Positions 4,936-32,000 of a stretch of DNA of 32,000 nucleotides are shown here, piece by piece. Below the pieces are notes generated by a model, which saw only the letters and a list, made by a program, of their open reading frames with translations, was not told where the DNA came from and made no database searches. The stretch comes from an archaeon (GTDB lineage Archaea; Undinarchaeota; CAZHTU01; JBDRCC01), in the NCBI GenBank assembly GCA_043822065.1, contig JBDRCC010000001.1:12215-44214 (forward strand), given 5' to 3'. The first letter of the stretch is position 1, and each line of letters begins with the position of its first letter. A program made the translations under genes and the position numbers.

Positions 4936-5547
4936 ATGTACTCGCAGAAATTTGTGCTTGACACGACGGCCTTCACGAACGCGACTTCGCCGAAAAAGTC
5001 AAAGGACGTCCTCCAGTACACCAAGAAGCTTGTAAAGATAGTGGCTGACGCGAGGGTGAAGCTCGGGGTAACCTGCTATATCCCGTATCCGATGGCTTAC
5101 AACGAGCTGGTCGCCTGCTTGAAGATGCGGGATGCCAAGGAGGCGCAGCTGATAGACCTAGACACATGGTTCATCAAGAAGACCCCGAACAGGTACGAGG
5201 TCAAGCTAAGCTCGGAGATATTCTACGAATATATAGGGGATATACGAGAGCGCATGAACAAGGGGCTCAGGCTTGCCGAAGATGCTGTCAAGGAGGCGTC
5301 CAGGAAAAAAGACCATGCGCCGCTGATAACCATACTCAGGGACAAGTATAAGTCCGCCCTCCGGGAAGGCGTGCTGGACAGCCGCGAGGACCTTGATGTC
5401 CTCCTGCTGGCTAAGGAGCTTAACGCGGGTGTGGTGACGGCTGACGAAGGCATGATAAAATGGGCAGAGAAAATGGGGCTTGAGATAATACCTGCGAACA
5501 GGTTCCCGAAAATACTCCAGGACCAGCTCGACATGAGCGAGAAATAA
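4936..5547 (+). CDS. PIN-like protein of the HARP / UPF0278 family (protein-only RNase P homolog, formerly 'RNA ligase partner protein')
   Basis: 203 aa. FVLDTTAFTN N-terminus, MNKGLRLAE, and DSREDLDVLLLAKEL..VTADEGMIKWAEKMG match the pattern I recall for the Aquifex Aq_880-like family. It lies tail-to-tail with an RNA ligase gene. Not verified by search. Confidence 0.7.
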   Translation: MYSQKFVLDTTAFTNATSPKKSKDVLQYTKKLVKIVADARVKLGVTCYIPYPMAYNELVACLKMRDAKEAQLIDLDTWFIKKTPNRYEVKLSSEIFYEYIGDIRERMNKGLRLAEDAVKEASRKKDHAPLITILRDKYKSALREGVLDSREDLDVLLLAKELNAGVVTADEGMIKWAEKMGLEIIPANRFPKILQDQLDMSEK

Positions 5548-6645
5548 TCAATCGGACGCATATTCGCCGTTGAGGAAATTTTTTATCCTGTCTTGTGTTG
5601 AGATGAACCGCTTCCGGATTGTCAGGCGGTTTCCACTTATCTCTTTTTCAGAGTCTATGCCTAAGTGCTCGAGGTGCTCTGCAAACTCGGCAAGCACATC
5701 CGGGTCTGCTTCGACCGTAGTGTCCTCAGTGAGCCTCTTGCCAGATGCGACATTGTTTATCGATTCGAGCATCGGCTCGAGGACTGCTTTTCCAATCCTC
5801 AGGGCGCGCGCGTCGCGCTCGCTTTGGGTGCGGTCGAACTCGTAGGACTGGAAGCCCTCGCGAATAAGCCGCCTGAAGAAGAAGTCATGGCCGTACTCAA
5901 ATGGGAAATGGAACGCCGAAGACACGTCGGAGATGTTCGCCCGAGGGAATATGTATTTTGCCTGCTCGGACATGTCCTCCGTCTTGAAAACCATGCCCTC
6001 CCGGTTCTGCCCGTCGAGCTTTTTTATGAGGGAGTAGACCTTCCCAAGCTCATTCGGCTTGAAGCTGCCGAGGTATGGAACCATCTTCAGCCCGTGCGTT
6101 TCACTAAGCCGCCTCTTTTCAGAGAATTTGACTGGCTTGCCGGACTCTTTTTGCCGTATGTCGAAGATGAAGAGCTCTGCATTTTTGACTTCGGGGTAGT
6201 CGTGCGTCACATGCGGGTTGAGCGGGCCTGCTATTTCCCCGCAGAGGACAAGGTCGTTTTCCCTGAAAAAGCTGGCGGTTTTTGCCGTTGCAAGGTCTGT
6301 AGAGAACGGGCAGATGAGCCCGCCGCGGGTTATTGCATAAACCTCTTCTCCGACCTTTGCAACCCGGACATTGTATCCATCGATTTTTTCCTCAATGTGG
6401 AAACCTTTTGGAAACTTGACCGTTAGCCCTGATTTCAGGTATAGGATGCGGCGTATTTTAGGGACGCCGCGGATGATTTCATTGTTGTCGAAGATGACAG
6501 TCCCCTTTTCGATGTGGTGGAGCTCCTTCCTGAACGCAAGATATTTTGTTTTCCCGCAAGTGACTGCAGATATCCCATGGCGTATCCTCTGCCTAAGGTA
6601 TTTTTCCTCAATGCCAAGCTTTGCAGCAGCTGCAGATATGTCCAT
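5548..6645 (-). CDS. ATP-dependent RNA ligase, archaeal Rnl3 (Pab1020-like) type
   Basis: 365 aa. Nucleotidyltransferase motif I EEKIDGYNVRV (KxDG lysine) and motif IV-like REGMVFK. Size is typical of archaeal homodimeric RNA ligases. Confidence 0.75.
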   Translation of the reverse strand: MDISAAAAKLGIEEKYLRQRIRHGISAVTCGKTKYLAFRKELHHIEKGTVIFDNNEIIRGVPKIRRILYLKSGLTVKFPKGFHIEEKIDGYNVRVAKVGEEVYAITRGGLICPFSTDLATAKTASFFRENDLVLCGEIAGPLNPHVTHDYPEVKNAELFIFDIRQKESGKPVKFSEKRRLSETHGLKMVPYLGSFKPNELGKVYSLIKKLDGQNREGMVFKTEDMSEQAKYIFPRANISDVSSAFHFPFEYGHDFFFRRLIREGFQSYEFDRTQSERDARALRIGKAVLEPMLESINNVASGKRLTEDTTVEADPDVLAEFAEHLEHLGIDSEKEISGNRLTIRKRFISTQDRIKNFLNGEYASD

Positions 6646-6681
6646 GGAAGAAATAAAGAAAAGGTTGTATAAAAGGGATAG

Positions 6682-7089
6682 CTAAAGCGGCCTGAACTTG
6701 TAGCCGTAGTAGATTACGCCTTCCGCGCCGTCAGTTGATATCCGCTTGAAGACTGCCTGCACAGGCATCCCGATTTTTACCTCGTCAAGGTTGCAGTCGA
6801 TGACCTGGCCGGTTATGGACGTGCCCTCCTCGAGCTCGATTATTGCCATTGCGTACGGGGTCTGGCCAGCGAATTCCGGAGGTCCGACGTGTATGATTGT
6901 GTAGGTTTTTATCTTGCCCTTGCCGGACAGCTCGGCATCTTCCATTATCGTCCTTCCGTCTTTCAGCGCTTCCTTGCAGACCGGGCAGACTATGCGCGGG
7001 GGGAAGAAGACGCCCTTGCATCCCCGGCACCGCGTGCCCATCATCTTGTACCGCTGGGGTATCTCCCGCCAGAACCTTGGAACGCTCAT
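6682..7089 (-). CDS. DUF35 Zn-ribbon/OB-fold protein (scaffold subunit of the archaeal thiolase/HMG-CoA synthase complex)
   Basis: 135 aa. CRGC...CPVC zinc ribbon followed by an OB-fold-like C-terminus. ATGA overlap with the upstream thiolase gene. Confidence 0.85.
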   Translation of the reverse strand: MSVPRFWREIPQRYKMMGTRCRGCKGVFFPPRIVCPVCKEALKDGRTIMEDAELSGKGKIKTYTIIHVGPPEFAGQTPYAMAIIELEEGTSITGQVIDCNLDEVKIGMPVQAVFKRISTDGAEGVIYYGYKFRPL

Positions 7090-13629: not shown

Positions 13630-13703
13630 GCCCGGATGGGGTAGTCTGGATATCCTGACGGCTTGCGGAGCCGTTGACCCGAGTTCAAATCTCGGCCCGG
13701 GCA
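13630..13703 (+). tRNA. tRNA-Arg (anticodon GCG), no encoded CCA
   Basis: Manual cloverleaf. Acceptor GCCCGGA/CCCGGGC (A7:C66 mismatch). Anticodon stem ACGGC/GCCGT with loop TTGCGGA. T-arm CCGAG-TTCAAAT-CTCGG. Discriminator A followed by CTTATTT. Confidence 0.85.
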
Positions 13704-13735
13704 CTTATTTAAAAATAGGGGAGTTTAGGGAAATC

Positions 13736-15433
13736 ATGTGGGATGACTTCAAAGCCGAGGTAAAGAAAGAGGTAAATTTTGCGCTTAAGGAGCTCGACGC
13801 GAGCCTGTCAATTGACTCGTTTGAGCAGCCGCCGGGAGGCTTCGGCGACCTCAGCACGACGGCGCCGCTCGTCCTTGCCAAAGAGCTCGGCAGGAAGCCG
13901 CGGGACATCGCAAAGGATATGCTTGACATAATCTCGACCAGGAAACACAAGCTTATTTCAAAGGTTGAGGTTGCTGGGCCCGGGTATTTGAATTTCTATT
14001 TAGATTATGACAAGTCCGCAGGCGTGCTAATTGCGGATGTCCTGAAGAAAAAGGACAACTACGGCAAGAGCGCAGTTGGAAAGAAAAAGAAGACGCTTGT
14101 CGAACACACTTCGGCAAACCCAGACGGTCCTCTGCACGTCGGGCATTTTAGGAACTCTGTCATCGGCGACTGCCTTGCCAGGCTGCTGAATTTTGGGGGA
14201 TATGACGCGTCCACCGAGTTTTACGTTAATGACGGCGGAAGGCAGATGGGAGTCTGCCTCTGGTCGTATATGAATTTCCACGCAGGGGAGAAGCCTGACG
14301 GAAAGAAGGACCACTGGGTTGCCAAGGTCTATATTGACGGGAACAAGAGGCTTGAGGGAAATGAGGAAGGGGAAAAGCAGGTTGCGCAGCTCCTTTTGGA
14401 TTATGCCGCAGGAAAGCACCAGGAAACCTGGAGCAAGGTAGTCGACTGGTGCCTTGAGGGGCACAAGCAGACGCTTGAGGGGCTTGGGATATCCGTAGAC
14501 GCTTACCACAAGGAAAGCCGTGAGGTGTGGGACGGCTCCGTAAAAAAGATGATAAAGCTCGTGGAGAAGAGCAAGAATGCGCTGAAGGATGGGGAGCTCC
14601 TCGGAATGGACCTGAAGGAGCACGGCTTCGAAAAGGAGTTCCTGGTCAGGAGGTCGGACGGGACGATACTGTACGGCGCAAAGGACCTGGCGTATCATTT
14701 TTTCCATAAGGCTGGGCAGGCGGATTGGATGATAAATGTCCTCGGCTCAGACCACAAGCTGTATTACGGGCAGCTGAGGACGGCGCTGAACCTCCTTGGC
14801 GTAAAGCAGAAATTTGACGTCGTGCACTACGAGTTCCTCACCCTGCCGGAAGGGCAGATGAGCACGCGGAGGGGGACATATATCGCGGTCGACGATCTAA
14901 TCGCAGAGGCGCGGAAGAGGGCGCTTGCCGAAGTAAAGAAGAGGCGGAGCGACCTTTCGGAGAAGGAGATGCTCAAGATTGCGGACGGGGTCGCGGTCGG
15001 CGCGCTGAGGTACTCTATAGCCTCGATTTCCCCGGAGAAGCCGATATTTTTCAAATGGGAGGACGCGCTGAACTTTGACAAGAGCTCCGCCCCCGCGCTC
15101 CAGTATACTTTTGCAAGGACGACGAGGATACTTGAAAAGTCGAAGGAGAAGCCGGACCCAAAGGTAAAGTCGCTTGAGGAAAGCGAAAAGATGCTCGTCA
15201 GGAAGATTGCAAGGTTCCAGGAGACTGTTGAAAAGGCGGCGAGCGAGCTCCGACCGCACGTAATCGCTAACTACGCCGACGAGCTGAACACGGCGTTCAA
15301 GGATTTTTACGCAAAGTGCCAGGTCATTGGCTCTGACAAGGAGGCGCAGCGGCTTGCAATAGTAAAGGCAGTCAACCAGGTAATGAAGAACTGCCTGAAT
15401 ATCCTGGGCATTGAGCCGCTGGCGGTGATGTAA
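13736..15433 (+). CDS. argS: arginine--tRNA ligase
   Basis: HVGH (HIGH-type) motif in PDGPLHVGHFRNS and an MSTRRG (KMSK-equivalent) motif. The protein ends in M, as is typical for ArgRS. The ORF track's 13628 start runs through the tRNA, so I use the ATG at 13736 (MWDDFKAEV). Confidence 0.95.
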   Translation: MWDDFKAEVKKEVNFALKELDASLSIDSFEQPPGGFGDLSTTAPLVLAKELGRKPRDIAKDMLDIISTRKHKLISKVEVAGPGYLNFYLDYDKSAGVLIADVLKKKDNYGKSAVGKKKKTLVEHTSANPDGPLHVGHFRNSVIGDCLARLLNFGGYDASTEFYVNDGGRQMGVCLWSYMNFHAGEKPDGKKDHWVAKVYIDGNKRLEGNEEGEKQVAQLLLDYAAGKHQETWSKVVDWCLEGHKQTLEGLGISVDAYHKESREVWDGSVKKMIKLVEKSKNALKDGELLGMDLKEHGFEKEFLVRRSDGTILYGAKDLAYHFFHKAGQADWMINVLGSDHKLYYGQLRTALNLLGVKQKFDVVHYEFLTLPEGQMSTRRGTYIAVDDLIAEARKRALAEVKKRRSDLSEKEMLKIADGVAVGALRYSIASISPEKPIFFKWEDALNFDKSSAPALQYTFARTTRILEKSKEKPDPKVKSLEESEKMLVRKIARFQETVEKAASELRPHVIANYADELNTAFKDFYAKCQVIGSDKEAQRLAIVKAVNQVMKNCLNILGIEPLAVM

Positions 15434-16300
15434 ATGATAGTCTCCTGCGGGCACACGGCTTACGACAATATCTTTCGGCTCAAGGTCCTTCCTGAGCTGA
15501 ACGGCTCCTGCGTCGTCGACCAGTTTGGCAGGCACTTTGGCGGCGGCGGGGCAAACGTCGCAGTGGCACTGGCAAAGCTTGGACTGAAGGTGAAGCTGTT
15601 CTCAACCGCCGGAGAGGACTTCACGGGGTCGGAATACGAGAAGTCGCTAATCAAGAGCAAGGTGGACATTGAGCACGTGACCATAGCCGACGAGAAGACT
15701 GCCGAAAGCTGGATGTACTTCGACGAAATGCAGCGCTACAAATGCTTCTTTTACTGGGGCGCGTCAAGGTTTTTGCAGTACTTCAAGGTCCCGACGGACA
15801 TACGGAAGCACGACTTCTTTTTCAACGCCCTTGACCCGCAGTTTGTCAGGGCGAACATAGGGCTTGTCAAGGGGAAAGTCGCGTTCGACCCGTCGTATGA
15901 CATATACCTCTACACGAAGGAGGACTTCGCTAAGATACTGCCGAGGGTGGACTACCTTTTCCTCAACGAGCACGAGTACCCGATTGTTATGAAGAACAGC
16001 GGCCTGACGAAGAACAAGATACTAAGGAAAGTGGGCACAATGGTTGTCTCAAAAGGCTCCGCCGGCTGCGAGGTCCACACCGAGAGCCATGTCCGGATGG
16101 TCCCAACTCCGCCAGTCGACGTCGTTGACACAGTCGGCGCAGGCGACGCGCACCGAGCAGGCTTTATGGCCGGCATAGAGAAGGGCTACAGCGAAGTGGA
16201 AGCAGCCAAAATTGGAAACTTCGTCGCGTCATTTTCCATACAGGAATTCGGGGCGCAGGCGCGGCTCCCCACGTGGGAAGAAGTCGAAAAGCTCCTTTAG
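15434..16300 (+). CDS. PfkB-family sugar/nucleoside kinase
   Basis: 288 aa. C-terminal DTVGAGDAHRAGF motif of ribokinase/PfkB kinases. The ATG directly abuts the argS stop (TAAATG). Confidence 0.8.
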   Translation: MIVSCGHTAYDNIFRLKVLPELNGSCVVDQFGRHFGGGGANVAVALAKLGLKVKLFSTAGEDFTGSEYEKSLIKSKVDIEHVTIADEKTAESWMYFDEMQRYKCFFYWGASRFLQYFKVPTDIRKHDFFFNALDPQFVRANIGLVKGKVAFDPSYDIYLYTKEDFAKILPRVDYLFLNEHEYPIVMKNSGLTKNKILRKVGTMVVSKGSAGCEVHTESHVRMVPTPPVDVVDTVGAGDAHRAGFMAGIEKGYSEVEAAKIGNFVASFSIQEFGAQARLPTWEEVEKLL

Positions 16301-16321
16301 GCTACTGCCCCGCAGAAACTA

Positions 16322-16329
16322 ATTTAAGC
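16322..16329 (+). promoter_or_regulatory. TATA-like box (ATTTAAGC) upstream of tRNA-Arg(UCG)
   Basis: The TTTAA core lies 30 nt upstream of the tRNA 5' end. Confidence 0.45.
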
Positions 16330-16352
16330 CGGCTTAGTCTTATAGGTATTAC

Positions 16353-16429
16353 GGGCCTGTAGCGCAGACTGGAAGCGCGAGTGGCTTCGGACCACTAGGT
16401 CGGGGGTTCAAATCCCTCCAGGCCCGCCA
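16353..16429 (+). tRNA. tRNA-Arg (anticodon TCG) with genomically encoded CCA
   Basis: Acceptor GGGCCTG/CAGGCCC. D-arm GCGC-AGACTGGAA-GCGC. Anticodon stem AGTGG/CCACT with loop CTTCGGA. T-arm GGGGG-TTCAAAT-CCCTC. Discriminator G, then CCA at 16427-16429. Confidence 0.92.
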
Positions 16430-16519
16430 TAATATTTGTAGGTGGTTTTCTTTGGGGTAATGCATAGACCTTTCTTTTTCTAAAAGAAAGGGATTCGCTG
16501 AAAATCCCTCCAGGCCCGC
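16410..16519 (+). repeat. 18-nt perfect direct repeat of the tRNA-Arg(UCG) 3' end (16410-16427 and 16502-16519) bracketing a 74-bp cassette
   Basis: AAATCCCTCCAGGCCCGC occurs twice. Copy 1 is followed by CA (making CCA). Copy 2 is followed by TTATTTT, the native-type trailer. Confidence 0.9.
16469..16491. terminator. palindromic T-rich hairpin, candidate bidirectional terminator (tRNA-Arg versus serpin)
   Basis: CCTTTCTTTT-tct-AAAAGAAAGG forms a 10-bp perfect stem. Oligo-T runs read on both strands, between convergent genes. Confidence 0.6.
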
Positions 16520-16532
16520 TTATTTTCAGTTT

Positions 16533-17783
16533 TTATGCCGTTGGGTCTGCGACCTTTCCGATGAAAATGATGTTCCCGGTCTCTGTTTCCTGTATGATAA
16601 AGAGGAAGGGGTGGTCCGCGCGGAATATTTTAGGGGGCATGGGAAACCCCGTAAACTTCATTGCGACACCCGTTGCTGCTGCGACCTCGGTTCCCTCTTC
16701 GTTGACATCGATGTAAGCCTGGTGGAGCACTATGCCAATGTAAAGGTTCCGCGTGCCGTCCATCCCAGAAAAGTCTGCCTTGGCTGGCGAGAACGCCGTT
16801 GGCATTCCCATGGAGATTAGGCTGTTTGTCAGGTCGTATTTGGTCTCAAAGGTGAACTTCGGGAGATAAACATCGACATCTTCGGCTTGCAGCTTGGCTC
16901 TCCACTCGCTTAGTTTCTCAAGGGACAGTGAATTTTCTAAGGCGGAAATATCCCCATCTTTTGGCAGGAGAACCAGCATGGAGAGCTGCTCTCCCACGTA
17001 GGGCATTTCAAGTATCTGGAGGTCATCCGTTTCTGTATATTTAAAGTTGGCTTCTTCCCCCGTCAGCTTCATCATTGGAACCTTGACAGTTTTGTAAGGG
17101 CTGACGCGGAAGTCTTCGTCCCTGGTGTCCGCCTTGTCAAACTGCTTGAGCCAGTCGCCCTTGAAGTAAACCGCATTTGTAAGCACGAAGCTTGTGTCTG
17201 GGGTTATTGTGCCCTCTGGAAACAGGTCTTTTATTTTGTTGTTAGTCTGACCTTCGACCCATGTGTTGATTGTGATGCGCGATTTCTCGGTTTCCCGGAG
17301 AAAGTCAACATTGGTTGCCTTCCCGCCATAGTATGATTCGACTGTGGTGAGGTACCCGTCCAGGAACTTGTAATCCTGCTGGGCCCAGAGGGCATTCGCA
17401 GTGTGGAGCTTGTACGCCTTGCCCTCTGCATTTAGCCGGTTGTAAAGGCTGGCGAAGGATGAGCGGCGGGCGGTGTCGTCTTCTGGAAAGTGGAATACGC
17501 CCAGCATCTCCTCTGCTGTCTCGCCGCGGGCGCCTTCGTATGCCATGGCTAACGCCGTGGAAATGCTCCAGGGGGAAATGAATAGGTTCTCGCCATCGGC
17601 TTTCAGTTCAGAATACGCGGCCAGGGCAAATTGCGTATTTGAGCCTATAAGCCCGCTGACCCCCTCCGGTGTTGCCTGGCTATCGTCTGCTGGTTGAGGG
17701 GAGGCTGGCGGCCTATCGCCGGTGCAGCCCATTGCAAGAACAAGGGCAAGCAGAAGCCATACGGGGAGGATTCCATTCTTCAT
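16533..17783 (-). CDS. serpin (serine protease inhibitor), predicted lipoprotein
   Basis: 416 aa. Lipobox-like N-terminus LLALVLAMGCTGD. Serpin hinge/RCL EEGTEVAAATGVAMKF and the C-terminal signature FRADHPFLFIIQE..G.IIFIGKV. Confidence 0.9.
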   Translation of the reverse strand: MKNGILPVWLLLALVLAMGCTGDRPPASPQPADDSQATPEGVSGLIGSNTQFALAAYSELKADGENLFISPWSISTALAMAYEGARGETAEEMLGVFHFPEDDTARRSSFASLYNRLNAEGKAYKLHTANALWAQQDYKFLDGYLTTVESYYGGKATNVDFLRETEKSRITINTWVEGQTNNKIKDLFPEGTITPDTSFVLTNAVYFKGDWLKQFDKADTRDEDFRVSPYKTVKVPMMKLTGEEANFKYTETDDLQILEMPYVGEQLSMLVLLPKDGDISALENSLSLEKLSEWRAKLQAEDVDVYLPKFTFETKYDLTNSLISMGMPTAFSPAKADFSGMDGTRNLYIGIVLHQAYIDVNEEGTEVAAATGVAMKFTGFPMPPKIFRADHPFLFIIQETETGNIIFIGKVADPTA

Positions 17784-19751: not shown

Positions 19752-20453
19752 ATGCCCCTAAACGACTACAGGAAGCAGGCGGACGTGGTTCTCATGCCGC
19801 TTGCAAGGCGATGGATCGACATAAGCCCCAACAAATTCAGCGCCATGTCGATGTTCTGCGCAGTCCTCGCCGGGCTGTGCTTTTACCTTGGCGGGTGGCT
19901 GCTTGTTGGCGCGGCTGTTTTTGTTTTCCTAAACGCGCTGTTTGACGCCGTTGACGGGAAGATAGCAAGGCTGACAAAGAACACGACCCAGAGGGGGGAC
20001 TTTTTGGACCATATAATCGACAGGTATTCTGACATCGTCATCCTGCTTGGGATAATGTACTCTGCCTACGGGCACGTGGGGCTCGGAGTGTTCGCGATAA
20101 TAGGCACCGTAATGACAAGCTACATAGGCACCCAGGCTGAGGCGAGCGGCGGAAAGCGCGAACGGGGAGGCCTGCTAGGGAGGGCGGACCGGATTGTGAT
20201 AGTAATGTTCCTGCCGCTGGTGCAGGGAGCCATGCTGATGTACGGTACGCTGGTGCAGGGATTCATGCTGATGTACGGTACGCTGGTGCCGGGATTCATG
20301 CTGATGTACGGCATTGGGCAATTTTACGGGCTTTACCTGACCGGCTGGGTCCTGCTGCTTCTTGCATTAACAGGAAACTACACTGCGTTCAGGAGGTTCC
20401 AGCTGACCTGGTCGCGGATTGGCGGGAAGAAGTATAGGGGGGAAAAACTGTGA
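19752..20453 (+). CDS. CDP-alcohol phosphatidyltransferase (archaetidylinositol-phosphate / archaetidylglycerol-phosphate synthase-like)
   Basis: DGKIAR-x8-G-x3-D-x3-D (DAVDGKIARLTKNTTQRGDFLDHIIDRYSD), polytopic. Contains an in-frame 33-bp tandem repeat. Confidence 0.8.
   Translation: MPLNDYRKQADVVLMPLARRWIDISPNKFSAMSMFCAVLAGLCFYLGGWLLVGAAVFVFLNALFDAVDGKIARLTKNTTQRGDFLDHIIDRYSDIVILLGIMYSAYGHVGLGVFAIIGTVMTSYIGTQAEASGGKRERGGLLGRADRIVIVMFLPLVQGAMLMYGTLVQGFMLMYGTLVPGFMLMYGIGQFYGLYLTGWVLLLLALTGNYTAFRRFQLTWSRIGGKKYRGEKL
20221..20311 (+). repeat. 33-bp in-frame tandem repeat, 2.75 units, inside the CDP-alcohol phosphatidyltransferase gene
   Basis: Units at 20221-20253, 20254-20286 (31/33 identical to unit 1) and a partial unit 20287-20311 (24/25 to unit 2). 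Encodes VQGAMLMYGTL / VQGFMLMYGTL / VPGFMLMYG. Confidence 0.95.
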
Positions 20454-25180: not shown

Positions 25181-25290
25181 GCTCCGGTAGCCTAGTTTGG
25201 ATAAGGCGTCAACGGAAATTGGAAAAACCCAAATCCGGCGCAAGCCTTCTAAGCTGAAGACCGCGGGTTCAAATCCCGCCCGGAGCGCCA
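25181..25290 (+). tRNA. tRNA-Arg (anticodon TCT) with a 32-nt intron at non-canonical position 29/30 and encoded CCA
   Basis: Acceptor GCTCCGG/CCGGAGC. D-arm GCCT-AGTTTGGATA-AGGC. After removal of 25212-25243 the anticodon stem is TCA|GC/GCTGA with loop CTTCTAA. T-arm GCGGG-TTCAAAT-CCCGC. Discriminator G, then CCA at 25288-25290. Confidence 0.85.
25212..25243 (+). other. tRNA intron (bulge-helix-bulge substrate), position 29/30
   Basis: Central 4-bp helix 25206-25209 (GCGT) with 25238-25241 (GCGC). 3-nt bulges CAA (25210-25212) and AAG (25242-25244). Inner helix CGGA (25213-25216) with TCCG (25234-25237). Cutting after the 2nd bulge nucleotide on each strand gives exactly the exon junction needed for a perfect anticodon stem. 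Confidence 0.8.
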
Positions 25291-25392
25291 CTTTATAGTT
25301 CTGAGCGGAGCGAAGACTAAGGTAGTTTTCTTTTTCGTCGACGTTTTTCTTTTTCTAAAAGAAAAAGGCCGTGAGAATCCCACCCGGAGCGC
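25272..25392 (+). repeat. 17-nt direct repeat (16/17) of the tRNA-Arg(UCU) 3' end (25272-25288 and 25376-25392) bracketing an 87-bp cassette
   Basis: AATCCCGCCCGGAGCGC versus AATCCCACCCGGAGCGC. Copy 1 is followed by CA (making CCA). Copy 2 is followed by TTATTTT. Confidence 0.9.
25344..25366. terminator. palindromic T-rich hairpin, candidate bidirectional terminator (tRNA-Arg versus membrane protein gene)
   Basis: TTTTTCTTTT-tct-AAAAGAAAAA forms a 10-bp stem. It contains the 19-nt core TTTCTTTTTCTAAAAGAAA, identical to 16471-16489. Confidence 0.6.
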
Positions 25393-25397
25393 TTATT

Positions 25398-26078
25398 TTA
25401 TTCAGAGGCGCCGAATGTGTTTTGAGTATTTTTTGCTGGCGGCTTTTTTTCAGTAGGTGCAGGCTTTGCCTTTTCAGGCTCCTCCTCGTCCATGCCGCCG
25501 AAGCTACCAAAGTCATCTTTTTCCACTGCCCCTGGCAACGGCTCCTCAGTTTTTGGAGCCGGGAGAACCTTGGTCACTATGAACTCCACGCCGAAATAGA
25601 AAATGACGAAGAAAAGCAGGATGCCGACAAGGGTCGGTATCGTGTCTACCGGGCGGATGAGGTAGGGTGAGTAAATGAACGGGGTGAACACTATCAGGAA
25701 GTAGGACACCTCGCGTATTCGCCCTATCGCCTTCGCGACCTCACGCCCCTGGATTGCCATACGCATTATGATTAGCCCGTAGATGAGCATTGCAACTGCA
25801 ACGCCGACCTTGAACGCGACGAGGGGAGTTATCCTGGCGATGTTGAGCCGCGAGAACATTGTCCTAATCCAGTCAATCCCTACCCACAGGGCAGTAAGCC
25901 CGTTTGCGGCGGCGTTGCCCAAGTCGGTCCCCCTCCGCTCCTGGTAGTAGTCGTTGACAATCCAGTTTAGGTATACTGGGATAAGTATCCAAAGCATCTC
26001 CGGGTTGTCGTATGGGCCGTAAACAAAGACCTTCCAAAGCCCCTGGGGGATGAGAATGAGGAACTCTACAAATTCCAT
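25398..26078 (-). CDS. hypothetical integral membrane protein with charged, low-complexity C-terminal tail
   Basis: 226 aa. Several hydrophobic segments and a C-terminus rich in E/K/P (DEEEPEKAKPAPTEKKPPAK). No family recognised. Confidence 0.6.
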   Translation of the reverse strand: MEFVEFLILIPQGLWKVFVYGPYDNPEMLWILIPVYLNWIVNDYYQERRGTDLGNAAANGLTALWVGIDWIRTMFSRLNIARITPLVAFKVGVAVAMLIYGLIIMRMAIQGREVAKAIGRIREVSYFLIVFTPFIYSPYLIRPVDTIPTLVGILLFFVIFYFGVEFIVTKVLPAPKTEEPLPGAVEKDDFGSFGGMDEEEPEKAKPAPTEKKPPAKNTQNTFGASE

Positions 26079-30918: not shown

Positions 30919-31971
30919 ATGAGACACATAGTTAAGAAAAATATTAGCGGAAACGAGTATTATTATTTTCAACTCAAGCTAGCGTCGATAGACCCAAAAA
31001 AGGAGCCGTATCTGTACAGCAAGTACATTGGCGAGTATTTGCCGTCAGAGTCTGTTCTAAAAAACTTTTTAATGAAGCGGGCGGAAGATTTGGCGATAAT
31101 TACTGCGAGTAACCTTGGTAAGGGCATACGTACATATTTCAGAAATGGACCGGATATTAAAGAAGTAGAAAGGGATAGATGGTGGTTTTATTTTATTAAC
31201 AATTACGATCTTTTTGAGGATCAAAATTCTACGTATCAGTCATTATTTGCCATACTATTTACGCTCCATACAAATGTAATAGAGGGCTCCAAAATGAGAC
31301 AAGACGATATTATCGCCATGACTAGTGACTCCCGGAAGAAAGTAGTCACCTTCGAAGAGAAAGAGGTCACAAATACCCTGGATGCACTCAAGTTTTCAGT
31401 TTCTAATGAAATGAAGTGGAATGTATCTTCAATAAAAAAACTTCATAGTAAGATATTGCCGGATGACCCCTTGGCCGGAAAATTTAGGATACGGGAGGTG
31501 GAGGTTGGTGATGCGACGCGAACGCGACTGTACAATACCGTGGAACCGCAAAAAATTAGAAAAGAACTTAGAGAGTTACTTTACTGGTTCAACAGGGAAC
31601 ATAACAAGGTATATCCTCCTCAACTAGCTCTTGAATTCCATTGGAGATTTGAGAGAATCCACCCATTTCAAGATGGAAATGGGCGAGTAGGGAGATTACT
31701 GCTAAATAGAATACTAATTGAGCACCACTTCATGCCAGTGATTTTCTTTTCGGAAAACGTTAGACAGTATTACGATGCAATAGCGCAAGCTAGAAACGGT
31801 AATTCTAGCAAGTTAGCTACGTTTTTCCTTAGGCAAAATAAAAAAACAAAGGAAGCCATGGAGCGTTTTAAAAGGGAAGGTATTGTCTCAGGACGGCGCT
31901 CTAGGATAGGTAGATGGACGATTAAAAGAGGAAAAACACCGAAAGAGTACGACGTAGAGGCCGAGGAATAA
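30919..31971 (+). CDS. Fic-domain protein (AMPylase family) with an N-terminal auto-inhibitory motif
   Basis: Fic motif HPFQDGNGRVGR (residues 248-259, nt 31660-31695) and inhibitory-helix motif TNVIEG = (S/T)xxxE(G/N) at residues 118-123. The gene is visibly more AT-rich than its neighbours. Confidence 0.88.
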   Translation: MRHIVKKNISGNEYYYFQLKLASIDPKKEPYLYSKYIGEYLPSESVLKNFLMKRAEDLAIITASNLGKGIRTYFRNGPDIKEVERDRWWFYFINNYDLFEDQNSTYQSLFAILFTLHTNVIEGSKMRQDDIIAMTSDSRKKVVTFEEKEVTNTLDALKFSVSNEMKWNVSSIKKLHSKILPDDPLAGKFRIREVEVGDATRTRLYNTVEPQKIRKELRELLYWFNREHNKVYPPQLALEFHWRFERIHPFQDGNGRVGRLLLNRILIEHHFMPVIFFSENVRQYYDAIAQARNGNSSKLATFFLRQNKKTKEAMERFKREGIVSGRRSRIGRWTIKRGKTPKEYDVEAEE

Positions 31972-32000
31972 TCTAACTTTTTGACATAAAGTTTAATGTT

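Follow-up and report, generated by a model that had tools for sequence, protein, structure and literature searches.

The 74 bp that separate two copies of the 3' end of tRNA-Arg(UCG) in the 32,000-nucleotide stretch of archaeal DNA analysed here (the window) are one member of a small, apparently undescribed intergenic element family common in DPANN archaea. On balance, the comparison of sequences suggests that the arrangement is probably due to a small recombinogenic element with a triplex-type hairpin, which would have been inserted together with a replacement gene end and would thereby have displaced the original tRNA end downstream.

The repeated tRNA ends in the window

The 18-nt sequence AAATCCCTCCAGGCCCGC, designated X, occurs exactly twice on the + strand of the window (Table 1), and no third copy with three or fewer mismatches is present there. 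The number of matches expected by chance, estimated from shuffled sequences, is 0.02, and two matches were obtained in 0 of 100 shuffles. In both window instances described here X extends from approximately position 57 of the tRNA, in the T-loop, to one base beyond the discriminator. Copy 1 is directly followed by CA (16428-16429), which provides tRNA-Arg(UCG) with an encoded CCA. Copy 2 runs on into TTATTTT, and its end thus matches the CTTATTT trailer of tRNA-Arg(GCG). The 74-bp spacing between the copies includes GGTGGTTTTCTTT and a perfect hairpin. This internal hairpin is the only inverted repeat that a repeat search detected inside the insert, and terminal inverted repeats are absent. 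The stop codon of the convergent serpin gene lies 13 nt past copy 2. An earlier, sequence-only reading had described the repeat coordinates, the CCA, the trailer, the hairpin and the serpin distance, and all of these statements are correct; it had missed that GGTGGTTTTCTTT is the mirror partner of a hairpin arm.

Both ARAGORN and Rfam find tRNA-Arg(UCG) complete without removal of the cassette, and the cassette here is therefore not a tRNA intron. A pseudo-tRNA downstream was rejected, since the likeness is limited to the 18 nt and a weak GGGATTC and both ARAGORN and Rfam are silent there.

The same layout is found at tRNA-Arg(UCU) in the same window, which has its own 3' end copied; the sequence-only reading had overlooked this case. 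After its encoded CCA the order is GGTAGTTTTCTTTTT, a hairpin, AATCCCACCCGGAGCGC and TTATTTT, with a repeat spacing of 84 bp, and the three tracts S1, S2 and S3 of the core are all altered in step relative to the first instance. The remaining two tRNAs of the window have neither the cassette nor an encoded CCA. An assembly artefact was rejected, because the layout occurs twice in the window and in many independent assemblies.

Table 1. Positions of the two cassettes and the adjoining genes in the window
Feature	Position	Strand	Evidence or remark
tRNA-Arg(UCG), complete, CCA encoded	16353-16429	+	ARAGORN; Rfam RF00005, 65.8 bits
Copy 1 of the 18-nt repeat X	16410-16427	+	working tRNA 3' end, tRNA positions ~57 to 74
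AT-rich linker TAATATTTGTAGGTG, tRNA end to core	16430-16444	+	
S1, GTTTTCTTT	16445-16453	+	proposed third (Hoogsteen) strand; T4-C-T3 mirrors S2
Variable loop GGGGTAATGCATAGA, S1 to S2	16454-16468	+	
Perfect 10-bp hairpin CCTTTCTTTT-TCT-AAAAGAAAGG	16469-16491 (arms 16469-16478/16482-16491)	+	repeat search; folds
S2 of the hairpin	16471-16478	+	
Hairpin loop	16479-16481	+	
S3 of the hairpin	16482-16489	+	
Element tail GATTCGCTGA	16492-16501	+	end is the junction with the putatively displaced copy
Copy 2 of X	16502-16519	+	interpreted as the tRNA's original 3' end, now displaced
Native trailer and oligo-T signal CTTATTTT	16519-16526	+	resembles the trailer after tRNA-Arg(GCG), 13704-13710
Serpin gene, convergent	16533-17783	-	Pfam PF00079, E = 3e-123
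tRNA-Arg(UCU), non-canonical intron, CCA encoded	25181-25290 (25181-25287, then CCA)	+	Rfam 49 bits; anticodon and intron read from sequence
Second instance, copy 1 of X, AATCCCGCCCGGAGCGC	25272-25288	+	
Second instance, S1, GTTTTCTTTTT	25325-25335	+	T4-C-T5
Second instance, hairpin TTTTTCTTTT-TCT-AAAAGAAAAA	25344-25366	+	S2 = T5-C-T4, S3 = A4-G-A5
Second instance, tail GGCCGTGAG	25367-25375	+	
Second instance, copy 2 of X, AATCCCACCCGGAGCGC	25376-25392	+	17 nt, 1 mismatch to the tRNA end
TTATTTT after second-instance copy 2	25393-25399	+	
Convergent ORF ending at the second cassette	25398-26078		

An element family in DPANN archaea

A search of other genomes for the core sequence showed the core to be widespread. 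The pattern GTTTTCTTT-N5-30-TTTCTTTTTCTAAAAGAAA, searched in genome contigs, matched at least 119 loci, nearly all of them in DPANN archaeal MAGs. Labels of DPANN or unclassified archaea are carried by 108 among the at least 119 matches listed, with no more than five loci per MAG, and the family is common to several DPANN phyla. Because the exact pattern fixes parts of S1, S2 and S3, some of the apparent conservation of sequence between phyla is due to the search itself. The core pattern was found in one viral contig; the hairpin-only pattern gave 26 matches in viral contigs, presumed to be chance matches in AT-rich DNA, only one of which also has S1. No Rfam model matches the cassette at the gathering threshold, and only noise appears at E ≤ 10.

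On the + strand, the parts of the family are arranged in the order of an AT-rich box ending in TA, S1 (consensus G-T4-C-Tn), a variable first loop of 7-23 nt, a hairpin of S2 (Tn-C-T4) and S3 (A4-G-An) closed by a second loop of 3 nt, and a short tail. In the family logo the AT-rich box with its terminal TA stands just before S1, and the linker is otherwise not conserved. The bracketed DNA measures 60-130 bp and contains no integrase. The orientation with respect to neighbouring genes is mixed, with no strong bias, and many members lie 3-10 nt past the 3' end of an opposite-strand gene.

Tandem units number at most two per locus. A CRISPR-like array was rejected on this count and because the 'spacers' are copies of adjacent gene ends. 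Integron attC sites, REP/RAYT elements and IS200/IS605 hairpin ends were also set aside, since their core-site motifs do not fit.

Covariation of the three tracts

The core contains three homopurine/homopyrimidine blocks on one strand, S1 (T/C), S2 (T/C) and S3 (A/G), in the order Hoogsteen-pyrimidine-purine. S1 mirrors S2 and is thus the parallel complement of S3; therefore, a single strand of DNA or RNA could form a pyrimidine-motif triplex. The proposed fold would consist of T.A-T triples with one C+.G-C triple.

The run lengths of S1, S2 and S3 covary among 124 cores, being 3,3,3 in 35 cores, 4,4,4 in 36, 4,4,5 in 35, and 5,5,5 or 5,5,6 in seven; the rule is broken in the other 11. When asymmetric hairpins were considered with S1 left unconstrained, 54 unique sequences have an upstream tract that mirrors the hairpin arm, and five have one that copies it directly. 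On the downstream side there are no mirror tracts and six direct ones. The mirror rule is kept in the independent run-length classes (3,5), (3,4), (5,4), (6,2), (4,3) and (4,5). Extensions also covary (CC/GG, CTC/GAG and CTT/GAA), and the covariation of the outer stem pairs is above that in all shuffles. In minimum-free-energy folds, which predict secondary structure, S1 is unpaired. From these patterns we infer that S1, S2 and S3 form an intrastrand pyrimidine-motif triple helix. In a few variants from bacterial MAGs, an extended GC stem directly adjoins S1, which would seem to disfavour a triplex. Polymerases are reported to stall at intrastrand triplexes, and such structures to be markers of unstable loci.

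Duplication of gene ends across the family

Exact flanking repeats of at least 16 nt accompany 17 of the 124 cores, compared with 3 of 1240 control positions, an enrichment of approximately 57-fold; about 85% of the cores have no flanking repeat. The intact gene is on the S1 side in all 18 interpretable cases, and the repeat copies the terminus of that gene. Across the family, the element is found beside a gene terminus, part of which is repeated immediately past the tail. The duplicated segments comprise tRNA 3' ends from the T-loop onward (L056, L067 and the two cases in the window), tRNA 5' ends from -2 to +14 (L033, L037, L046, L076, L079 and L124, and longer in L074), ORF stop regions (L077, L108, L132 and L133) and ORF start or promoter regions (L041, L072 and L121). 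The repeats are 12-57 nt in length, and lengths of 16-18 nt recur in several of the tRNA cases. CCA follows the upstream copy in the two window cases only; L056 and L067 are without it. The element is not tRNA-specific.

The sequence-only reading had interpreted the window locus as att-like, and this geometry is borne out: the working tRNA end, which bears the CCA, comes first, and the native end, with the oligo-T trailer, lies downstream of it. Of the explanations that it offered, a miniature non-autonomous element comes nearest to the results, given the cassette at a second tRNA, the core at no fewer than 119 loci elsewhere and the enrichment of flanking duplications. The specificity for tRNA genes that it ascribed to such an element has to be abandoned, since ORF stop and start regions are duplicated too. 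It had also considered the scar of a deleted integrative element, taken here as a larger, integrase-encoding element that integrated in the T-loop and lost its interior. The attL/attR geometry at the T-arm, a sublocation reported for archaeal viruses (PMC4090602), would be explained in this way, but the miniature size and conserved core are the same at two tRNAs of the window and at 17 or more independent repeat-flanked sites elsewhere, the core is nearly absent from viral contigs, and among the loci examined neither a kilobase-sized version nor a kilobase-distant copy of the sequence adjoining the tail was found. Such a scar is thus very unlikely.

A miniature DNA transposon that makes long staggered cuts, with the 18-nt repeat as its target-site duplication, would account for direct repeats that immediately flank the insert, for their length of 16-18 nt in several tRNA cases, and for the several copies per genome. 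The overall repeat length is not fixed, however, terminal inverted repeats are lacking, and conservation does not extend to the linker that makes up the left part of the insert. Moreover, the duplicated segment belongs to the gene on the S1 side in 18 of 18 cases, contrary to the prediction from a symmetric target duplication, and the purB copies described below have diverged silently beside an identical linker and core. A transposon of this kind is quite unlikely. Replication slippage or simple tandem duplication was rejected, because it predicts (X-linker-core)n followed by the flank, with no trailing X.

Silent divergence at purB

The arrangement varies at the purB gene of Altiarchaeales IMC4. 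With X denoting the duplicated gene-end segment, L the linker and C the core, four assemblies that encode an identical 443-aa PurB have the structures Xa-L-C-X3, Xb-L-C-X3, Xa-L-C-Xb-L-C-X3 and Xb-L-C-Xb-L-C-X3'. All the X copies encode NYIGTAVEQVENVLRKIK*, and they differ at 5, 9 and 14 sites, every one of them silent. The linker and core are identical, and the silent changes are concentrated in the repeat. In simulations, six random substitutions were all silent with a probability of 5 × 10-5, and eight or nine were never all silent in 200,000 trials. In relatives with 74-77% identity, the next gene starts 2-31 nt past the purB stop and there is no element.

The number of units and the allele at the Altiarchaeum purB vary between assemblies, and this copy-number polymorphism in the population is consistent with unequal homologous recombination. 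The silent differences speak for imported or once-functional gene ends, but they could also have arisen without a foreign origin, if the downstream copy was often excised and used again.

Cores within tRNA genes

The core is found in four settings. Two are introns, of the anticodon loop and of the T-loop; in the third the core lies just outside a tRNA end whose terminal exon is duplicated, and in the fourth at an ORF end whose last codons are duplicated. At L061, L066, L071, L111, L126 and L135 it is inside tRNA genes, with Rfam matches that span the core, and at L139 and L062 it interrupts the T-loop. Removal of 57 nt from L139, where they separate positions 59 and 60, restores a perfect tRNA-Lys(CUU).

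These cores raise the alternative that, in the tRNA cases, the element was originally a T-loop intron and that a copy of the 3' exon, derived for example from cDNA of a mature CCA-bearing tRNA or from an intron-less allele, was inserted ahead of it, so that the intron became a 3' trailer and splicing was no longer needed. This order of events would also agree with the start of the window repeat in the T-loop, with CCA at both copies 1 and at neither of the other two window tRNAs, and with the broad specificity of the splicing endonuclease in Micrarchaeota (PMC3239211). It leaves unexplained, however, the ORF cases L077, L108, L132 and L133, for which it fails because an element 18-54 nt inside a reading frame would not be tolerable. 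In addition, the upstream copies of L056 and L067 have no CCA, and the duplicated tRNA 5' ends take in positions -2 and -1, which mature tRNA does not contain. By eye, no bulge-helix-bulge motif is evident at the window junctions, although the first instance, unlike the second, could form a GGGATT/AATCCC helix. We consider an intron origin unlikely, although it has some points in its favour.

The cores in tRNA genes also bear on a possible role in termination. Between the tRNA and the convergent serpin gene, the element appears to supply T-runs on each strand, those on its reverse strand being offered to the serpin transcript. A plain bidirectional terminator would agree with this and with the many family members that lie 3-10 nt beyond an opposite-strand gene end; the repeat would then be an incidental local duplication, a primer-binding site or an anti-tRNA segment in the 3' UTR of the serpin transcript. 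Nevertheless, a terminator role is doubtful, because the same core resides in tRNA introns, which need read-through transcription and argue against efficient termination. Furthermore, a plain terminator explains neither why flanking repeats are enriched nor why S1 covaries as a mirror tract, the serpin context is absent from the second instance and from other loci, and a scan for bacterial-type promoters and terminators was empty at the cassette. The whole explanation is extremely unlikely. For the anti-tRNA 3' UTR or primer-binding-site function, which the sequence-only reading had also raised, no support was found. Priming of reverse transcription by tRNA was rejected: the 18 nt and CCA fit, but CCA is missing at L056 and L067 and the ORF cases involve no tRNA.

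Proposed origin and consequences

The preferred reading, insertion of the element together with a replacement gene end, may be described as follows. A segment consisting of gene terminus, linker and element would enter by Campbell-like or one-sided homologous recombination anchored in the gene, and the resident terminus would be pushed downstream of the incoming segment. In the window, the CCA-bearing copy 1 would be the incoming, working end, and copy 2 with CTTATTTT the original one. The direct repeats so created would permit gain, loss and tandem expansion through unequal homologous recombination.

Insertion at the tRNA-Arg(UCG) locus is deduced from the family, because no empty site was found for this locus. 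Apart from one identical PfkB sequence that has no contig attached, the closest relative found has a neighbouring PfkB gene that is only 47% identical; its synteny is ArgRS-x-PfkB, and no tRNA is at the site. Among 42 metagenomic archaeal tRNAs that share the 3' 24-mer of the tRNA, none is orthologous and none has a second downstream copy.

A broader proposal, that the family is a DNA-level mobile agent of DPANN archaea which marks transcription units at their ends, rearranges these ends and gives rise to non-canonical tRNA introns, is offered tentatively and is rather doubtful. Under this proposal, an element inserted in a tRNA loop would become an intron when nothing is duplicated, or an externalised leader or trailer when there is a duplication, and the triple helix would be what stalls replication or what recombination recognises. 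The full-text literature searched, an incomplete set, contained no description of an A/T-rich pyrimidine-motif intrastrand triplex family in archaea; should the fold be confirmed, the present family would be the first of this type found described there. It would tie a defined non-B structure to recurrent genome change, in the form of stacked alternative gene termini and live population polymorphism. For annotation, such cassettes yield tRNA fragments and duplicated gene ends that may be mistaken for pseudogenes, integration scars or assembly errors.

Comparison with known systems

Like REP/BIME sequences and MITEs, the DPANN element is short, structured, non-coding, intergenic, present in multiple copies and sometimes in tandem. 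Unlike REP and MITE sequences, it has no terminal inverted repeats or short fixed target duplication, and its three-block mirror architecture is not shared by REPs or MITEs.

This architecture is shared with the PIT/BoxC/TMECO elements (Hoyne/Maher 2000; Holder et al. 2015, PMC4666352), which likewise have three consecutive homopurine/homopyrimidine blocks, the third following the mirror rule, and occur as dispersed intergenic copies with no consistent gene orientation. Bacterial intrastrand triplex repeats go together with local genome instability (PMC4666352), a trait to which the flanking duplications and copy-number polymorphism of the DPANN element correspond. Under the PIT classification, the sequence would place the element in class IV (Hoogsteen, pyrimidine, purine) on the + strand and in class II, the purine motif, on the other. 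TMECO is proteobacterial and G/C-rich, with a purine motif and loops of 3-6 nt, whereas the DPANN element is A/T-rich with a single C/G and has a first loop of 7-23 nt. The ITxF definition requires loops of 1-6 nt (PMC4666352), which fits the second loop (3 nt) but not the first. The duplication of an adjacent gene terminus, found in the DPANN element, is unreported for TMECO.

The MALAT1/MEN-beta/ENE structures have the same order of U-rich tract 1, stem-loop, U-rich tract 2 and genomic A-rich tract, with one C+.G-C among U.A-U triples, a likeness that here is at the sequence level only. The MALAT1 helix adjoins a tRNA-like structure, as the window element adjoins a tRNA. These structures are stabilisers of eukaryotic or viral RNA 3' ends, in contrast to the DPANN element, which is known from DNA sequence alone, has no Rfam match and shows mixed gene orientation.

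Integration of archaeal viruses has been reported at the T-loop/T-arm sublocation of tRNA genes (PMC4090602). In SSV-type integrative elements, the direct repeat is the 3' part of the tRNA from the T-arm, as in the window; the gene is made whole again by the incoming copy while its former end is moved downstream, which parallels the proposal made here, and displaced coding ends differ silently, as at purB. In contrast to those elements, only 60-130 bp are bracketed here, without an integrase, and a single att sequence does not exist, because the targets are many tRNAs, tRNA 5' ends, ORF stops and ORF starts.

Finally, how archaeal tRNA genes come by their introns is, according to PMC4090602, not known. 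Transposition of archaeal tRNA introns (Fujishima et al. 2010, as summarised in PMC4090602) is, according to that summary, of unknown mechanism and thought to take place at the DNA level. As summarised there, it concerns BHB-bounded introns of Thermoproteales, whereas the DPANN core also occurs outside tRNAs and beside protein genes. With its presence both in tRNA introns, canonical and T-loop, and outside tRNA ends, the core is a testable candidate for the gain of archaeal tRNA introns.

The repeat at tRNA-Arg(UCG) and a second cassette

AAATCCCTCCAGGCCCGC occurs exactly twice in the window, where 0.02 matches are expected from shuffles and no third match is present at up to three mismatches. 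Copy 1 is the true 3' end of tRNA-Arg(UCG) and its next bases are CA, which completes an encoded CCA. After copy 2 comes TTATTTT, and the trailer CTTATTT is shared with tRNA-Arg(GCG). The 74 bp between the copies contain GGTGGTTTTCTTT and a perfect 10-bp hairpin, and copy 2 lies 13 nt from the stop of a convergent serpin ORF. All that the sequence-only reading had described at 16410-16535 (repeat, CCA, trailer, hairpin and serpin) was found again. The repeat is real, and its cassette is a member of a large family.

A second cassette lies downstream of tRNA-Arg(UCU), the fourth tRNA of the window, whose 3' end reads ...AAATCCCGCCCGGAGCG-CCA. About 85 nt with GGTAGTTTTCTTTTT and the hairpin TTTTTCTTTT-TCT-AAAAGAAAAA are followed by AATCCCACCCGGAGCGC, which is the 3' end of the same tRNA with one mismatch, and then by TTATTTT. 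The two cassettes consist of the same parts, arranged in one order; the 3' end copied is in each case that of their own tRNA, and in both (2/2) a convergent ORF ends on the side away from the tRNA. They are found only at the two CCA-encoding tRNAs of the window; the cassette-free tRNA-Arg(GCG) and tRNA-Pro(CGG) have no encoded CCA. No orthologous empty site for the window locus was found in the collections searched for this lineage.

Coordinates of features in the window and in loci from other genomes (L-numbers) that carry the core
Sequence	Feature	Position	Remark
Window	tRNA-Arg genes GCG and UCG	13630-16429	
Window	CTTATTT trailer of tRNA-Arg(GCG)	13704-13710	
Window	tRNA-Arg(UCG)	16353-16429	ARAGORN; Rfam, 65.8 bits
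Window	AAATCCCTCCAGGCCCGC, copy 1	16410-16427	
Window	AAATCCCTCCAGGCCCGC, copy 2	16502-16519	
Window	CDP-alcohol phosphatidyltransferase ORF	19752-20453	
Window	33-bp tandem repeat within this ORF	20215-20311	2.9 copies, 95% identity
Window	tRNA-Arg(UCU), Rfam match	25181-25287	missed by ARAGORN
Window	tRNA-Arg(UCU), read from the sequence	25181-25290	~32-nt intron in anticodon stem, non-canonical position
Window	ORF, Fic/DOC-family protein	30919-31971	
Window	Low-G+C last kb	31001-32000	G+C 0.40; about 0.53 elsewhere
L038	Core between tRNA and archaeal RNase P RNA	6153-6724	
L040	Group II intron domains	5764-6599	few kb from element; MAG labelled Halobacteriota
L051	Core past 3' end of 23S rRNA	5629-5713	43 nt past the end
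L062	tRNA T-loop interrupted by element	~5430-5590	reverse orientation
L139	tRNA T-loop interrupted by element	~48-176	reverse orientation

Some other features of the window may be listed. The tRNA-Arg genes GCG, UCG and UCU all lie within one 12-kb stretch, and an arginyl-tRNA synthetase gene is located directly 3' of tRNA-Arg(GCG). The 33-bp tandem repeat is in frame and adds 11-residue repeats. The Fic/DOC-family ORF is situated at the low-G+C end of the window, and its DNA is possibly foreign.

Anatomy of the element

The family has an architecture of three blocks with a mirror rule. In 124 core instances the parts are, in order, an AT-rich box with TA at its end (74% have T at -2 and 79% have A at -1), S1 (G-T4-C-Tn1), 7-23 nt of variable sequence, S2 (Tn2-C-T4), a TCT loop, S3 (A4-G-An3), and a tail of 5-12 nt that is often followed by a T-run. 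The values of n1, n2 and n3 move in step, being 3,3,3 in 35 instances, 4,4,4 in 36, 4,4,5 in 35, 5,5,5 or 5,5,6 in seven and discordant in 11; the window copies have 3,3,3 and 5,5,5. Since S1 (T4-C-Tn) is the reverse of S2 (Tn-C-T4), it is the parallel complement of S3 and not a direct or inverted copy.

With S1 left unconstrained, 45 nt were searched at all Tq-C-Tp / Ap-G-Aq hairpins in which p differs from q. Upstream, the mirror tract Tp-C-Tq was found in 54 unique sequences, compared with the direct tract in 5; downstream, the numbers were 0 and 6, respectively. The mirror rule is kept in the independent classes (3,5), (3,4), (5,4), (6,2), (4,3) and (4,5), and block extensions obey it as well (CC with GG, CTC with GAG, CTT with GAA). 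In another subgroup, the 13-nt version TTTTCTTTCTTTT is present in all three blocks. Covariation of the outer hairpin pairs is above that of all shuffles, and in secondary-structure prediction the hairpin is formed and S1 is unpaired.

Mirror repeats are not producible by duplication or inversion, and the structure that they are generally taken to indicate is a Y.R-Y triple helix. The block pattern suggests that the element may fold as an intrastrand triple helix, predicted to be of class IV (Hoogsteen, pyrimidine, purine) on the + strand and of class II (purine motif) on the other.

Distribution of the family

The pattern GTTTTCTTT-N5-30-TTTCTTTTTCTAAAAGAAA was scanned in one genome per species, and genes in the loci were called by simple ORF heuristics. 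At least 119 loci match, a count that is pattern-biased and in which loci are not phylogenetically independent. Among the matches listed, 108 are from DPANN lineages or unclassified archaea by record title (named lineages being Woese-, Pace-, Nano-, Micr- and Aenigmarchaeota, Iain-/Diapherotrites and Altiarchaeota), four carry other archaeal labels and seven bacterial or CPR labels, with up to five loci per MAG. Only one viral contig matches. Part of the apparent sequence identity between phyla stems from selection by the search pattern, which fixes much of the sequence; variant loops and run lengths are frequent within the same loci. Rfam has no family for the cassette, and no description of the element was found in the open-access subset of the literature searched.

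The copies in MAGs labelled bacterial or CPR (L029, L043, L064, L109, L129) mostly have S1 abutting a GC-extended hairpin, e.g. GTTTTCTTTGCCCCAC...GTGGG, and in L029 an 18-nt repeat lies upstream of two such units. These copies could reflect real spread or mis-binning. The Woesearchaeota-type copies at L031, L077, L127 and L144 have an additional conserved module (..ATTCTCACTYACAAATCT-loop-AGATTTG..) ahead of the core, and the family is therefore modular.

Duplicated gene termini

Members of the family repeatedly carry the terminus of the S1-side gene as a displaced copy. Of the 124 cores, 17 are flanked on both sides by an exact direct repeat 16 nt or more in length, compared with 3 of 1240 random positions in the same loci. 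Read one by one, the duplicated segment, X, ends at a gene terminus in every interpretable case, with the intact gene on the S1 side in 18 of 18; L136 is a complex case outside these 18. X may be the 3' end of a tRNA, starting in the T-loop and running 1-3 nt past the discriminator (L067, the two cases of the window, and L056 with three nested copies), or a tRNA 5' end, from -2 to +14, with the tRNA on the opposite strand (L033, L037, L046, L076, L079, L124; longer in L074). In other loci X comprises the terminal codons of an ORF together with its stop (18 nt in L077, 47 nt in L108; L132, L133) or the start or promoter region of an ORF (L041, L072, L121). Past the tail, the other copy adjoins the native flank, which may be an oligo-T trailer, a promoter or the gene that follows. 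In the tRNA 5' cases the native promoter stays with the distal, partial copy, and the duplication in L132 keeps an overlapping gene pair intact. One-sided repeats of varying length (12-57 nt) and a linker that is not conserved are not what a symmetric target-site duplication predicts. No version of kb size with the same two ends was found in the loci examined.

tRNA genes, introns and other stable RNAs

At 34 of the 124 cores a tRNA is the closest called feature on one side or both, and some cores lie, on the opposite strand, 6-9 nt past the 3' end of a tRNA. In Rfam scans of 75 loci, the core lies within a tRNA gene in antisense in L061, L066, L111, L126 and L135 and in sense in L071; these tRNA matches span 140-201 nt with the core included, and the element is therefore part of long introns. 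In L139, a perfect tRNA-Lys(CUU) that encodes CCA results when 57 nt are removed; the split lies between positions 59 and 60, and L062 has a similar interruption. The T-loop boundary of the window repeat thus coincides with a site that the element occupies, as an intron, in other loci. Transcription has to pass through the cores that lie in introns, and this weakens the case for the element as an efficient terminator. Core orientation has no strong bias relative to flanking genes. As L038 and L051 indicate, the element is also associated with stable-RNA genes other than tRNA.

The purB locus

The copy number of such sites varies within a population. At L133 (purB in Ca. Altiarchaeales IMC4), an identical 443-aa PurB is encoded in four assemblies (L192-L195), which differ in the downstream DNA. 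If X stands for alleles of the final 18 codons, L for a linker of 24 nt and C for the core with tail, the arrangements are Xa-L-C-X3, Xb-L-C-X3, Xa-L-C-Xb-L-C-X3 and Xb-L-C-Xb-L-C-X3'. L and C are identical in all four, and the assemblies vary in unit number (one or two) and in the silent allele in use. Xa, Xb and X3 each encode NYIGTAVEQVENVLRKIK*, and their differences, at 5, 9 and 14 positions, are all silent. In simulations, six random substitutions were all silent with a probability of 5e-5, and eight or nine in none of 200,000 trials. The displaced copies were therefore under coding constraint, either as functional ends in other genomes or through periodic re-use once excision has occurred. 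In the two-unit allele the middle copy is chimeric, like X3 in its junction-proximal part and like Xb in the remainder, as unequal homologous recombination between alleles would give. In purB relatives at 74-77% identity, the next gene starts 2-31 nt past the stop, without the element.

A possible history and related systems

In the window, the CCA-bearing copy, linker and core would have arrived together, displacing the original tRNA end, which retains the native CTTATTTT; the predicted triple helix may render the site recombinogenic. For the two tRNA cases, the main rival is an intron-first history: the element would have sat in a T-loop intron, which came to lie outside the tRNA when a 3' exon resembling that of mature tRNA, with CCA, was inserted. 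Such a history accounts for the CCA at copy 1 but leaves the ORF cases unexplained. The order of parts in the element corresponds to that of the MALAT1-type RNA triple helix. In the published classification of intrastrand triplexes, class IV is also possible in RNA, and instability has been reported for bacterial intrastrand triplex repeats (PMC4666352), in line with a site that may be recombinogenic.
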